Below are positions 50,280 to 55,044 of a stretch of DNA of 64,000 bases, piece after piece. Origin of the DNA: an uncultured Clostridium sp. (GTDB lineage: Bacteria; Bacillota; Clostridia; Clostridiales; Clostridiaceae). Numbering within the stretch: the stretch's first letter is position 1; each line of letters opens with the position of its first letter. A program made the translations under genes and the position numbers. The notes beneath the pieces were generated by a model. That model did no database searches. It was not told the origin of the DNA and was given only the letters and a program-made list of their open reading frames with translations. The DNA lies in the NCBI GenBank assembly GCA_934746785.1, contig CAKVFO010000001.1:16967-80966 (forward strand). Reading direction: 5' to 3'.

Positions 50280-51690
50280 GTGAGTATTATTTTATCTACA
50301 CTTATTGCTGTATGTACATGTTTTAGTACAGCTGTAACACCCAAGGCTGCACAAGTACCAAGTAATGCAACTTTACTTAATACTTATGGTAAAACTTTTG
50401 GGAAGTCTGGAGTTGCAATACCAGCTTACAAGATGAGGGATAGAAATGTAATTAACTTTACAAAGAAAGAATATAATAGTGTTACGGCTGAAAATGAAAT
50501 GAAACCAGATGCTGTATTAGGAAGAAATCCAAAGACAATTTCTGTAGCACAAGCTAAGTCAATGGGATACTATATTCCAGCTGGATATTTAGAAAGTACA
50601 GTACCTCAACTTAACTTTTCTTCAACAGACAGTATGTTAACTGGAGCAGGTTATGTAAGCCAATCAGTTATGGATAAGAGAATGGAAATGTATATCAAGA
50701 CTGTTTTAGGACACATTTATAAATCAAAATACAAAGATGTAATTTATGCATGGGATGTTGTTAATGAATATTTACATGCTAATAAATCAGGATGGTTAAA
50801 TTCATCAATCAGGGTCAAGCTAATAAGATTTGTGCTGGTGTTGAAATTCAAATTACAGAATTAGATATTTCAGGATCTAATCAAGAATCGTATTGCTATA
50901 ATCTAATGAAATCAATTATTGATCAAAAGAATAAAGGTGCTAATATTTCTGCTATTGTTTGGTGGGGACTTTCAGATGACGTTTCATGGCGTAAAAATAA
51001 TAAGCCATTATTATTCTCTAGACTTGGTGTAAAGAAAGGTATGTATCAAAAAGTTTTACAAGCATACTATGATTCAAATATTAAGCAAACTTCCAAACCA
51101 CAACAGCCTTCAGAACCACAACAACCTTCAAAGCCGGAACAAACTCCAACTACTACAGGACAAGTTAATCCTTCAGTTGGAGAAACTGCTAAAATAGCTG
51201 ATGGATGGTATTATATTAAAAATGCAAATGCAGGTAAATACCTTCAAGTTGCTGGTAATGCGGCTAAGGCTATTACTAATGTATGTCAATGGACTTATAA
51301 AGGAAAGGCTAACCAGCAGTGGATATTTGAATCAGTTAGTTCAGAACCAAAAAATTCAGAACCAACAGAACAATAAATCCACAACCAAGTACTCCAGTTT
51401 CAGCAAATTTAAAACTTAATTATAATATAAATAATTGGGGCTCAGGATATCAAGTTAATTTCAAAGTTAGTAATGAGACATTAGCTGATGTTTCAGGATG
51501 GACATTAAAGATTAAGAAGAGTGATATTAATATTGGTTCAAGCTGGAATGTTACAGTTAACGAAGTAGGAGATTATTATGTAATTACTCCACTTAGCTAC
51601 AATTCAAATGTTGCTAAAGGTAGAAGTGTTGAATTTGGAATTCAAGGTTCAGGAAGAATAGGAAATACTATAAACTATACGTTAAGCTAA
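50280..51690 (+). pseudogene. GH10 endo-xylanase with ricin-type (CBM13-like) and CBM2-like modules, degraded by multiple lesions
   Basis: GH10 motifs TAENEMKP, WDVVNE (acid/base) and ITELDI (nucleophile) are present. The two Glu lie only ~30 codons apart instead of ~105, and they are in different frames. The signal peptide is truncated (ATG-TGA just upstream). A single QxW ricin repeat is present. There is a further frameshift at ~51376 into the C-terminal module (NNWGSGYQVNFKVSN...SSWNV), which ends at TAA 51688-51690. Confidence 0.8.
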
Positions 51691-51803
51691 TATTATAAAT
51701 AATAAAAAGCCGTATTCAGATATTAAATCTGGGTAGGGTATTTTTTACGTATATTACGTATATATTGTAACTATAATTTAAGAATTTAAATAGTATAAAT
51801 ATA

Positions 51804-51831
51804 TGGACAATTTAATTTTTTATGATAAAAT
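51804..51831 (+). promoter_or_regulatory. Candidate glmS promoter with an extended -10
   Basis: TGGACA (51804-51809), a 16-nt spacer, then TGATAAAAT (TG at 51823-51824, TAAAAT at 51826-51831). Confidence 0.45.
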
Positions 51832-51916
51832 GTCTGTAGGTATAAAATCTAACAAAGAAAGGAAGGAAGTGGCAATAACTTACGTATTTAAAAAGGTATT
51901 TAGTTAATTATAATAA

Positions 51917-52290
51917 AGCGCCAGGACTTAAGGTAAAATAGATAGTATGAGAAAATAAAAAAGGAAACTCAGCTTGAGAGCTGAGTAAGTTCGTATAACC
52001 AAATCATAGATTTGTAATGGGAAAAAGGAAACTCAGCTTGAGAGCTGAGTAAGTTCGTATAACCAAATCATAGATTTGTAATGGGAAAAAGGAAACTCAG
52101 CTTGAGAGCTGAGTAAGTTCACCTAAACCAAATCATAGATTTGGAGGTTCACTTAAGTTGACGAGGATGGGGAGTATCGAATTCTTCGGCGGGTGCCCCA
52201 CGGTATCGCACTACCGTAAATGACTGACAAAGCTATGAAGTGATTTGTAGTACAAATTCAGTCTGGTGTTAAAACCTTCATTAGGGCTTT
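51917..52290 (+). promoter_or_regulatory. glmS ribozyme (GlcN6P-dependent), with an unusually large insertion in the P1 region
   Basis: The cleavage-site strand A|GCGCCAGGACU is at 51917-51928. The core TAAGTTGACGAGGATGGGGAGTATCGAATTCTTCGGCGGGTGCCCCACGG is at ~52153-52202, followed by P3/P4-like sequence. It lies upstream of glmS. Confidence 0.85.
51958..52144 (+). repeat. 64-nt tandem repeat, 2 identical units plus a third diverged unit, inside the glmS ribozyme
   Basis: Units 51958-52021 and 52022-52085 are identical 64-mers. The third unit, from 52086, shares the first 35 nt and the CCAAATCATAGATTTG hairpin. Confidence 0.95.
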
Positions 52291-52399: not shown

Positions 52400-54226
52400 A
52401 TGTGCGGAATAGTTGGATATTTAGGAAAGAGACAGGCAACATCTTTTTTAGTTGATGGATTATCAAAACTTGAATATAGAGGATATGACTCTGCAGGTGT
52501 TGCTGTTGAAGATGAAAATGGAAGTATTACTGTTGTTAAGCATAAAGGTCGTTTAACAAATCTTAGTGAAGATTTAGATAAGAATCCTGTACACGGAAGT
52601 ATTGGTATAGGACATACAAGATGGGCAACACATGGAGCTCCATCAGATGTTAATTCACATCCACATAAGAGTTCAAAAGGTAATATAACAGTTGTTCACA
52701 ACGGAATTATTGAAAATTATCTTGAACTTAGAAAGTTCTTAATAGGTGAAGGATATGAATTCAAATCACAAACTGATACAGAAGTAATACCAAACCTTGT
52801 TCACTATTACTTTGAAGGAGATCTTTTTGAAGCTGTAGTTAAAGCAACTAAGAAGTTACAAGGAAGTTATGCTATAGGAGTTATCAGTGGTGATGATCCT
52901 AATAAGTTAGTAGCAGTAAGAAAAGACAGTCCATTAATAGTTGGCCTTGGAGAAGATGAAACTTTCATAGCTTCAGATATTCCAGCTGTAATAAGCTATA
53001 CAAGAGATGTATATCTTTTAGAAGATAATGAATTTGTATTAATCACTAATGAAGGTGCAGAAGTATTTAATAGTGATAAATCTAAGATAGATAAGGAAAC
53101 TTACCATGTAACATGGAGTGCAGATGCAGCTGAAAAGGGTGGATATGATTCATTCATGATGAAGGAAATTCATGAACAGCCAAGAGCAGTAAGAGACACT
53201 TTAACTGGTAAAATAACAGATGGAAAAGTTACATTTGAAGATTTCAAATTAACTAAAGAAGAGCTTCAAGGTATAGATAGAATTTACATTGTAGCTTGTG
53301 GTACTGCATATCATGCAGGTTTAATGGGAAAAGTAGCAATCGAGAAGTTTGCTAAGATTCCAGTAGAAGTTGATATAGCATCAGAATTTAGATATAGAGA
53401 GCCATTAGTGACTGATAAGACTTTATTAATTACTGTAAGTCAATCAGGAGAAACTGCTGATACTCTTGCGGCTTTAAGAGATTGCAAGAAAGCAGGAGCT
53501 AGAACTTTAGCTATAACTAACGTTGTTGGAAGTACTATTTCAAGAGAAGCTGATCATGTAATTTACACAATGGCAGGCCCTGAAATAGCAGTTGCATCTA
53601 CTAAGGCATATACAACTCAAGTTGTTGTTATGAACTTAATAGGTATGTACTTTGGACAATTAATGGGAACAATAACTGCTGAAGAAGAAAAAGCTTTAGA
53701 AGAAGGATTACAATTAATTCCTGAAAAGATAGAAGAAGTTCTAAGTGAAGAAAGAAAGATAGAAGAAATAGCTAAGGTTTTAGCTGATGAACAAGATCTT
53801 TTCTATTTAGGTAGAGGAGCAGATTTTGCTCTAGCTCTTGAAGGATCATTAAAGCTTAAGGAAATAACTTATATTCACTCAGAAGCTTATGCAGGTGGAG
53901 AACTTAAGCATGGACCAATCGCTTTAATTGAGGATGGAACTAAGGTTATAGCTCTATTAACTCAAGAAAGATTAAGAGAAAAGATGGTAAGTAATATAGT
54001 AGAAGTTAAAGCAAGAGGAGCACATGTTATAGGTGTAGCTTACGAAGGTGATGAATTAGATGAAACTGTATTTGATGAAGTTATTAGAATACCAAGAATA
54101 TTAAATATGGTTGCACCAGTAGTTGCTGCTGTATCTTTACAATTATTATCTTACTTCACAGCTAAGGAAAAAGGATTCGATATAGATAAGCCAAGAAACT
54201 TAGCTAAGTCAGTTACAGTTGAATAG
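52400..54226 (+). CDS. glmS: Glutamine--fructose-6-phosphate aminotransferase
   Basis: The N-terminal nucleophile MCGIVGY is present, with two SIS domains and the C-terminus PRNLAKSVTVE. Confidence 0.97.
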   Translation: MCGIVGYLGKRQATSFLVDGLSKLEYRGYDSAGVAVEDENGSITVVKHKGRLTNLSEDLDKNPVHGSIGIGHTRWATHGAPSDVNSHPHKSSKGNITVVHNGIIENYLELRKFLIGEGYEFKSQTDTEVIPNLVHYYFEGDLFEAVVKATKKLQGSYAIGVISGDDPNKLVAVRKDSPLIVGLGEDETFIASDIPAVISYTRDVYLLEDNEFVLITNEGAEVFNSDKSKIDKETYHVTWSADAAEKGGYDSFMMKEIHEQPRAVRDTLTGKITDGKVTFEDFKLTKEELQGIDRIYIVACGTAYHAGLMGKVAIEKFAKIPVEVDIASEFRYREPLVTDKTLLITVSQSGETADTLAALRDCKKAGARTLAITNVVGSTISREADHVIYTMAGPEIAVASTKAYTTQVVVMNLIGMYFGQLMGTITAEEEKALEEGLQLIPEKIEEVLSEERKIEEIAKVLADEQDLFYLGRGADFALALEGSLKLKEITYIHSEAYAGGELKHGPIALIEDGTKVIALLTQERLREKMVSNIVEVKARGAHVIGVAYEGDELDETVFDEVIRIPRILNMVAPVVAAVSLQLLSYFTAKEKGFDIDKPRNLAKSVTVE

Positions 54227-54376: not shown

Positions 54377-55044
54377 ATGATAACAATTTTTCCTAAAGTG
54401 TACAAAGATGAATTGTTATATAGTTGGATGGCTAGATATACTTTTATTAATGGTAATGTTAAAGCTTCTTATGATAAAGAAGACTTATTTGGAAATCCTA
54501 AGTGGGTATTTGATTTGTTTAGACAAAACAATTTGGAGTATTTTGTTAATTGTTTTCCTGAACAATTAGGTTATACAGCAGAAGATATTATTTATAGAAA
54601 TACTATTTTCCCAGTATTCTTTAAGTTTATGGATAATGAAAGAAAAAATAATATTACAAAAAAGATATGCTCTTCAAATTTTTCTACTTTGATAAAAGAA
54701 ATAGGAATTAATATTAGAAATAGTACAGAAGTAAGAAATCACATAAATATATGTCCTTTGTGTTATGAAGAAGACAAAGAGACTTATAATGATGCATACA
54801 TACATAGAAATTATCAAGTACCTGTTAGTTATATTAAGTTTAAAGACGTTATATATATATTTATAAAGAAAATTCAATCAATAGGTATATGTTAAAAAAT
54901 AGTTTATCATTTAAATCATTATCAAGTGAAGTAGGAAATATAATAAGTATATTTAATCAGTATTTTGATGAATATTCTATTAAAGATAGTAAGTTCTATT
55001 TTGAAAATTGGGAAAACGTAATTAGAGAGTGTAGAGATGAATAA
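54377..55044 (+). pseudogene. TnsD/TniQ-family transposition target-selector remnant, truncated and frameshifted
   Basis: The N-terminus IFPKVYKDELLYSWMARY resembles NFPVPYSNELIYSTIARA in Tn7 TnsD. IIYRNTIFPVFFKF resembles LIYEHTLFPLYAPF. The zinc-finger start ICPLCYEE....AYIHRNYQVP is present, but the second C..H pair is lost. The ORF ends at 172 aa. A 51-aa continuation in another frame covers 54889-55044. A full TnsD is ~500 aa. Confidence 0.65.

Follow-up and report, generated by a model that had tools for sequence, protein, structure and literature searches.

In a 64,000-nt stretch of DNA from an uncultured Clostridium sp. (assembly GCA_934746785.1, contig CAKVFO010000001.1, positions 16,967 to 80,966 of the forward strand; hereafter the window, numbered from its first letter), we identified a glmS ribozyme in which the loop of helix P1 is occupied by three tandem units of a two-hairpin repeat found across the genus. 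With a probability of about 0.72, the array is a tolerated P1 expansion segment of genomic repeat within a working glmS ribozyme, and the number of units drifts by slippage or unequal recombination. The finding is solid as natural history and somewhat surprising, and it is not a new mechanism; the case is real and intact, and typical of the genus.

The initial annotation, made from the letters of the window, had called a glmS ribozyme here, and this identity was borne out. The Rfam covariance model (CM) for glmS (RF00234) matched positions 52080-52274 with 85.8 bits against a gathering score of 37, directly upstream of the gene for a 608-aa GlmS, and glmS was the sole Rfam family matched in the whole 64-kb window. 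By sequence reading, the cleavage-site strand consists of A followed by GCGCCAGGACT at 51917-51928, with AGCGCC at 51917-51922, and the same strand is present in C. vincentii, C. cibarium, C. lapidicellarium, and C. subterminale. The core GACGAGGATGGGG begins at 52160, immediately preceded by CTTAAGTT at 52152-52159. Every strongly conserved consensus position from model position 41 to 167 was matched in the Rfam alignment of the window, non-canonical core pairs occurred only where the alignments of relatives have them too, and alignment comparison showed the 52160-52274 region to be close to the cores of related species. The segments GCGCC, GACGAGG, UCGGCGG, and CCGUAA, which form the active-site double pseudoknot (P2.1 and P2.2), are present in the window sequence; the Rfam model and ViennaRNA are both pseudoknot-free, and the structure predictions given here cover nested helices. 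With its core ending at 52274 and glmS beginning on the same strand at 52400, the ribozyme occupies the position of a glmS 5' leader, and the encoded GlmS is 84% identical to that of C. cibarium. Judged by its sequence, the ribozyme looks intact, with its conserved parts undamaged. The ribozyme, its P1 array (units with hairpins H1 and H2), and the downstream gene are laid out as follows:

51917 to 51924, plus strand: cleavage-site strand A/GCGCCAG, with the predicted scissile bond A51917/G51918 and the invariant AGCGCC of the Rfam consensus.
51925 to 51932, plus strand: P1 5' strand GACUUAAG, paired with 52152-52159 in the minimum free energy and centroid structures.
51933 to 51957, plus strand: A-rich spacer from the P1 5' strand to unit 1, read from the sequence and unchanged in all conspecific alleles.
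51958 to 52021, plus strand: repeat unit 1 (nhmmer match to the element profile), with H1 at 51967-51986, GAGTAAGTTC at 51983-51992, and a short H2 at 52000-52014.
52022 to 52085, plus strand: repeat unit 2 (nhmmer match), 100% identical to unit 1, with H1 at 52031-52050 and H2 at 52064-52078.
52086 to 52151, plus strand: repeat unit 3 (match to R1, the CM of the element), with H1 at 52095-52114, GAGTAAGTTC at 52111-52120, and an extended H2 at 52121-52148.
52152 to 52159, plus strand: P1 3' strand CUUAAGUU, assigned by folding and at the same time the repeat element's conserved 3' end, CACTTAAG.
52160 to 52274, plus strand: catalytic core and peripheral domain (P2/P2a, P3, and P4, with the GUGA tetraloop L4 at 52240-52243), from the Rfam alignment.
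52400 to 54226, plus strand: glmS coding sequence, 608 aa (open reading frame, ORF; Pfam GATase_6/7 and SIS domains in the identical protein of conspecific contigs).

Tandem Repeats Finder, exact matching, and alignment all agreed with the earlier description of two identical 64-nt units followed by a diverged third from 52086. A single array was reported at 51958-52143 (period 64, 2.9 copies, 96% matches, score 342). The 64-mer is exact at both 51958-52021 and 52022-52085, a match absent from all 100 shuffles, whereas the third copy (52086-52149) has 70% identity overall, with its first 35 nt identical and its last 29 nt diverged. The hairpins described for each unit were found at the coordinates claimed, including the extension of the second hairpin in unit 3. 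H1 is the palindromic ACTCAGCT-TGAG-AGCTGAGT in all three units; H2 is CAAATC-ATA-GATTTG in units 1 and 2 and is lengthened in unit 3 to ACC-TAAA-CCAAATC-ATA-GATTTGG-A-GGT, in which ACC and GGT face each other across a TAAA/A internal loop. Unit 1 is a truncated element copy without the closing strand TCACTTAAG, and unit 3, which runs straight into the P1 3' strand, is the sole complete element copy in the array and was matched over its full length by R1 (52089-52156, 70.3 bits). The loop between the two P1 strands measures 219 nt, and the distance from AGCGCC to the core is 243 nt. On the minus strand, each H1 is followed by TTCCTTTTT, giving 3 terminator-like sites against 0.2 expected.

Unit copy number is polymorphic within the species, as is well supported by seven metagenome contigs (L201-L207) that encode an identical GlmS protein and have flanks 98.6-100% identical to the window. 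One unit is present in L201, two in L204 and L207, three of the identical type in L202, and three diverged ones in L203 and L205; L206 ends within the leader. The copy-number instability suggested by the initial annotation is thus visible among conspecific contigs. In L204 and L207, the flanks are 100% identical to the window and unit 2 is absent, and in L203 and L205, diverged units stand in place of unit 2. In its 5' part the window unit agrees with the first internal unit of L203/L205 and in its 3' part with the second; it looks like a recombinant of these two diverged units, as would arise if unequal crossing-over were followed by a new duplication. That the window has exactly three units is likely, and L202 may be the window's own source record. 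A species-specific 29-mer of the leader had no match in JGI metagenomes, and an exact 30-mer of the unit had no match among species-representative genomes, which means that the species itself lies outside that collection.

The repeat was proposed at the outset to lie between the cleavage strand and the core, where a short P1 hairpin usually sits, and a CM alignment had been recommended as a check. This alignment placed the 5' part of the window's ribozyme elsewhere, with model positions 1-37 on 52080-52116 (AAAAAGGAAACUCAGCU in unit 3), an outcome that at face value would refute the proposal in the way the initial annotation had set out, yet the placement is an artefact, and unit 3 has no GCGCC. 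Applied to the 1-unit allele L201, the same CM aligned the true AGCGCC strand with P1 as ACUUAAG/CUUAAGU (105.3 bits), and it chose the same strand and P1 in the 2-unit allele L204 (93.2 bits); in the 3-unit allele L203, it flipped to the unit-3 placement (85.8 bits). The unit-3 placement arises because the insertion penalty outgrows the true-strand alignment at this insert length. In C. vincentii, C. lapidicellarium, and C. subterminale, inserts of 100-170 nt at the same place were spanned by the CM. We therefore rejected the unit-3 strand, with H1 as P1, as a candidate, since the same model picks the 51917 strand in the shorter alleles.

Folding gave a consistent picture of P1. The sequence of its 5' strand is common to the clostridial ribozymes compared, and in ViennaRNA predictions the 8-bp helix formed with a pair probability of 0.96-0.99 in the isolated domain with 1, 2, 3, or 5 units and of 0.82-0.93 in the full leader. 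The best competitor was a local extension of the last hairpin, 2.7 kcal/mol worse, and the P1 domain had a folding z-score of -6.45. When the transcript was folded as it grew, the units did not capture the P1 5' strand, which paired with 52152-52159 once that segment was made. Since the shorter alleles are aligned with the true strand and P1 is predicted to close, the repeat forms the loop of P1.

Long repeat-filled P1 loops appear to be the rule in Clostridium, not an oddity of one strain. A scan for the P1 3' strand plus the start of the core yielded 95 distinct clostridial ribozyme 5' parts, a survey selected on, and thus biased towards, the ACUUAAGU P1 base. The distance from AGCGCC to the core had a median of 175 nt and a range of 26-671 nt, which puts the window, with its three units and 243 nt, in the middle of the range for the genus. 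At least 1 module was present in 75 of the 95 ribozymes (1-4 modules each), and the arrays span about 90 species; the other 20 had none. In a separate set chosen by GlmS similarity, arrays were found in 3 of 10 Clostridiaceae, with L002, L003, and L005 among the members lacking any module. The simplest P1 hairpins, those of C. luticellarii (L270), C. liquoris (L208), and C. cibarium (L001), are the element H2 itself. The suggestion that the third unit of the window might be the ancestral P1 thus holds for its second hairpin, the homologue of the entire P1 in these three species.

Larger arrays share one design, in which n repeats of H1, GAGUAAGUUC, and a short hairpin are joined by A-rich linkers and UCACUUAAG, the P1 3' strand, is confined to the last unit. 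Exactly one P1-closing strand was found in 37 of 38 multi-unit forward arrays, and the canonical head-to-tail junction CACTTAAGGAAACTC occurred 24 times outside P1 and never inside. The inner length of H1 was 12-15 nt in 15 of 25 P1 modules versus 16-21 nt in all 48 dispersed copies. The P1 base ACUUAAGU and the module AAGGAAACUC-H1-GAGUAAGUUC-short hairpin (1-4 units, periods of 59-73 nt) are shared by the window with other Clostridium sensu stricto, including C. tetani (L238), C. butyricum (L248), C. saudiense (L224), C. lapidicellarium (L007), C. subterminale (L009), and C. sartagoforme (L117). These ribozymes differ in that unit sequence and linker are particular to each species, pointing to concerted evolution within each array, and in that some arrays are inverted or mixed and reach 671 nt. 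C. lapidicellarium and C. subterminale each have tandem units of their own that share the conserved blocks, the block is reversed in C. vincentii, and whole arrays are inverted in L280, L008, L117, L304, and L315. The largest P1 inserts seen, with loops of 546-671 nt, belong to L117, L304, and L315, in which inverted modules stand by the 5' strand, direct modules stand by the 3' strand, and a shared unrelated middle part of ~300 nt separates the two. A 2.3-kb contig binned with an alphaproteobacterium (L096, labelled as a Croceicoccus metagenome-assembled genome, MAG) has the beginning of a Clostridium-type glmS leader, in which at least three 59-nt modules precede the contig end, itself located within the array. 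Mis-binning of a Clostridium contig that broke at the repeat is the probable explanation.

Outside glmS leaders, the same modules are found as a ~75-nt two-hairpin repeat dispersed through many Clostridium genomes, of which the window unit is a truncated copy. The element has the layout AAGGAAACUC-H1-GAGUAAGUUC-H2-UCACUUAAG, with the consensus ACUC-NNNN-UC-NN-loop-NN-UC-NNNN-GAGU for H1 and AAGU-UC-NNN-UAA-CCAAAUC-ANA-GAUUUGG-A-NNN-UC-ACUU for H2. In the consensus alignments, both hairpins share a symmetric UC/UC internal loop, and H2 has in addition a conserved asymmetric loop of 3 nt (mostly UAA) facing a single A, which recalls the UAA/GAN motif. A scan with a 22-base motif drawn from the unit (GAGTAAGTTC-N5-9-AAATCAWAGATT) matched at least 120 stretches, almost all from Clostridium, on both strands and often many per genome; among the matches listed, several genomes were rich in copies, such as C. 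culturomicium and the MAG MP_MU_2_bin.93. The model R1, built from 21 element copies, found 170 copies in the 831 kb searched, which comprised the motif-selected loci plus the window.

The hairpins of the element are conserved through compensatory change. Across 150 aligned copies and 24 pairs, 93.5% of cells were paired, and 19 of the 24 pairs had changed on both sides. Double-change cells numbered 454 versus 147 in shuffles, and the covariation score was 0.308 versus 0.102 in shuffles and at most 0.05 for slid partners, for which pairing fell to 24-43%. Departures to G-U (100) and to A-C (79) were similar, with no evident strand preference, and as a strand-specific wobble test for a role at the RNA level, these counts were not decisive. 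The copies are nearly always intergenic, with 9 of 262 nhmmer copies in the selected loci overlapping an ORF; between co-directional genes, 91 are antisense and 43 are sense, and a further 39 lie between divergent and 10 between convergent genes. Their intergenic position, both orientations, and the near equality of G-U and A-C departures argue for a DNA-level repeat rather than an RNA motif. The element is chromosomal, with one match in plasmids and none in phages. At its boundaries, compared in 72 copies, a T-rich stretch followed by WAA marks the left and CACTTA[A/T]G the right end.

We found no counterpart of the element in Rfam, searched with the insert at permissive E-values and with 18 element-rich loci at the gathering score; these scans gave glmS and T-box matches, chance microRNA matches, and nothing else. 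Literature searched by keyword and literal sequence gave no name for the repeat. It behaves like a small repeat of the REP, BOX, or MITE type and is not placed in any named family. The dispersed copies also showed a pattern relative to their neighbors, lying antisense to co-directional genes at a ratio of 2:1 and ~75 nt after the gene that precedes them; the antisense ones may work as terminators. Sense copies often end at a ribosome-binding site, CACTTAAGGAGG, with the start codon a few nt further on (L087, L088, L090, L093, L121, L128, L167, L184, and L188), and the element might there provide or hide Shine-Dalgarno sequences or fold into a 5' structure with a protective role. Proteins may recognize the invariant GAGUAAGUUC and UCACUUAA.

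The strand placement, the activity of the ribozyme, and the assembly itself each admit a different explanation. To take the Rfam placement as correct, with AAAAAGGAAACUCAGCU as the ribozyme 5' strand and the H1 hairpin as P1, would follow the CM alignments of the window and of L203, and it is hardly conceivable. GGAAAC would stand where the invariant GCGCC is required, leaving the P2.2-forming and cleavage-site bases absent; with one or two units removed, the CM chooses the 51917 strand at higher scores; and the relatives all have AGCGCC followed by ACUUAAGU. It is also very unlikely that the insert, by parting the cleavage strand from the core, has disabled the ribozyme and that glmS is regulated otherwise. 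The Rfam score does fall from 105 to 86 bits with added units, and the CM does not find the true 5' strand in the window, yet the loss of score is the insertion penalty alone. Moreover, the alleles compared, with 1, 2, and 3 units, do not differ in AGCGCC, in the base of P1, or in the aligned core that follows from the P1 3' strand; P1 is predicted to close, and dozens of species combine longer arrays with conserved cores, which would be unexpected if the ribozyme were dead. The triplication would be an assembly artefact if the true genome had one or two units and the assembler had looped round the repeat. The perfect identity of units 1 and 2, the two units of L204 and L207 despite flanks that are 100% identical to the window, and the end of L206 inside the leader, as expected at a repeat, all speak for this. 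We nonetheless consider it improbable. The 3-unit version recurs identically in L202 (though this is possibly the window's source), and the 3-unit allele with diverged units in L203 and L205 is impossible as an assembly loop. The 1-unit junction of L201 should not be buildable from multi-unit reads at the usual k, because that would take a k-mer spanning the spacer, the shared 35-nt prefix, and the unit-3-specific part, and isolate genomes of other species normally have multi-unit arrays.

The role of the array is the remaining point of choice. In the preferred reading of a tolerated expansion segment, only the 8-bp P1 foot (51925-51932 with 52152-52159) would belong to the ribozyme proper, and the loop would be free to vary as a passenger tolerated by the fold. 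P1 would be the site where element copies sit and multiply, because the element H2 matches the simple Clostridium P1 hairpin in sequence and shape, and slippage or unequal recombination between units would produce the 1-, 2-, and 3-unit alleles. Binding of glucosamine-6-phosphate would lead, as in the cofactor-dependent self-cleavage described for the glmS ribozyme (PMC11602151, PMC2258182), to cleavage between A51917 and G51918, decay of the glmS mRNA, and less GlmS. P1 is the most tolerant part of the core: activity survives as many as eight deletions, most of them in P1, and catalysis is little affected by mispairs at the base of the helix (PMC7125110); the P1 base is also proposed to receive the L4 tetraloop (PMC11602151). 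Several points weigh against this reading. Its neutrality is an assumption, and a 219-nt loop could slow folding, since P1 is proposed to be where folding of the double-pseudoknot core nucleates (PMC7125110). The invariant GAGUAAGUUC and the short hairpin of the internal units could have been kept through function and not through recent duplication, and assembly, through the collapse or expansion of a perfect repeat from short reads, could account for contigs that differ only in having two or three units. No further element copy was found in the 64 kb of the window besides the three in P1, and the element may not be dispersed at all in this species. Its mobility is deduced solely from its distribution: clustering of 1022 ORFs from 120 loci gave no recurrent transposase-like family near the copies (a distant single-copy gene would escape), and no target-site duplication was evident in 72 copies.

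A regulatory array, in which loop length and extra UAAGU strands would delay or weaken P1 nucleation, set the speed of folding and cleavage, and make unit number (1-3 in this species, 1-4 or more in the genus) a heritable dial for GlmS expression, or in which the units would bind a protein, appears rather unlikely to us. It would agree with the nucleating role proposed for P1 (PMC7125110), with the retention of arrays in 75 of 95 ribozymes and about 90 species, and with the P1 modules forming a distinct class with a shorter H1. The single closing strand and the absence of canonical junctions inside P1 resemble selection shaped by the ribozyme, and each unit keeps the invariant GAGUAAGUUC, able to pair with either P1 strand. 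However, the predicted P1 probability is constant across unit numbers, the units take the P1 5' strand in only ~3-4% of the ensemble, the five inverted whole arrays are hard to square with a sequence-specific RNA role, and some Clostridium ribozymes do without modules. Complete units restored in silico caused no equilibrium misfolding: internal closing strands acting as ribozyme traps were unsupported, with P1 still at p = 0.86 in the rebuilt version, and in its truncated transcripts the 5' strand paired with the first decoy at only p = 0.04. Origin by duplication of an internal segment is an equally good explanation of the single-closing-strand rule as selection. More tentatively than the tolerated segment, we can also picture a combination in which the dispersed element and the ribozyme share a helix, the element H2 being the glmS P1 hairpin. 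The P1 arrays would then have been sculpted by the ribozyme, with internal units that have no closing strand and a shortened H1, and within-species copy number would tune the speed of P1 nucleation. Either P1 would have been domesticated from the end of a mobile element, or the repeat would have been born in the glmS leader and then spread.

Compared with the model glmS ribozymes of B. subtilis, B. anthracis, and Thermoanaerobacter tengcongensis, the window ribozyme has the same A/GCGCC cleavage strand, P1 link, P2/P2a, P3, P4, GNRA L4, and position in the glmS leader. The model ribozymes have a short P1 hairpin, whereas the window has the 219-nt loop with three repeat copies, a length at which the standard CM no longer aligns the true 5' strand. 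Variable, lineage-specific peripheral loops on an unchanged core are familiar from rRNA expansion segments, RNase P RNA, and insertions in group I and group II introns. The P1 of the window differs from these in that its insert is a recognizable copy of a dispersed repeat and varies in copy number within a species. The consensus drawings of glmS show P1 as a hairpin of variable length, and alignments have probably included long clostridial P1s, that of C. tetani for one, for years. A description of the repeat-filled P1 architecture was not found in the literature searched, which did not cover the consensus survey of McCown et al. 2011. Nor did we find described there that these loops are arrays of a genus-wide repeat, that the repeat hairpin is P1, that arrays have one closing strand, or that unit number varies within a species.

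The two subterminal hairpins of the dispersed element, without obvious inverted ends, recall the ends of IS200/IS605 elements. In architecture, the element can be likened to BOX of Streptococcus pneumoniae (modular A-Bn-C), REP/BIME, REPIN (with RAYT), MITE, and palindromes derived from the IS200/IS605 family (PMC6006769), all short intergenic repeats of tens to hundreds of copies in both orientations, with modular or tandem arrangement and conserved hairpins carrying compensatory changes. It differs from them in that no sequence relation, no nearby transposase, and no target-site duplication were seen. We know of no BOX-, REP-, or MITE-type family that forms part of a ribozyme helix.

For annotation, these results mean that standard CMs misplace the 5' half of clostridial glmS ribozymes, or score it too low, when P1 is longer than about 200 nt, and automatic cleavage-site predictions in such genomes would be off by hundreds of bases. 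Clostridium provides, for a single ribozyme, a natural range of P1 loops from 4 to about 650 nt, including within-species alleles set apart by exact 64-nt steps; these are ready material for testing whether folding and regulation are limited by P1 nucleation. The ~75-nt family, apparently unnamed and highly structured, is abundant in Clostridium intergenic DNA, often near ribosome-binding sites, and its other strand can mimic terminators. As glmS is essential and its ribozyme is an antibiotic target, variation in the clostridial architecture is of practical interest.

The surroundings of the leader showed some further features. One candidate promoter was identified 5' of the ribozyme by a consensus scan:

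51804 to 51831, plus strand: candidate glmS-leader promoter TGGACA, 16-nt spacer, and TG-extended TAAAAT (10 of 12 matches).

The scan of the leader region gave 6 sites against 4.0 expected by pattern match alone, and this weak candidate would place the start of transcription ~80 nt 5' of the cleavage site. It is flanked by three copies of TTACGTAT(A/T)T(A/T), two of them adjacent at 51745-51764 and one at 51880-51890, which contain the palindrome TACGTA and may be an operator or chance matches in AT-rich DNA. Upstream of the leader, a GH10 xylanase gene with a ricin-type lectin domain (50280-51376, plus strand) is read as two overlapping ORFs (50280-50864 and 50792-51376); it is split likewise in conspecific contigs, with varying lengths, and is probably a frameshifted pseudogene. 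Directly 3' of glmS, a 172-aa ORF (54377-54895, plus strand) has a TniQ domain (PF06527, 52 bits) and is also present in conspecific contigs at lengths of 144-172 aa. The next ORFs, when scanned, had no TnsA/B/C-like domains, and the TniQ ORF may be what is left of a Tn7-like element at glmS, its classical attachment site.

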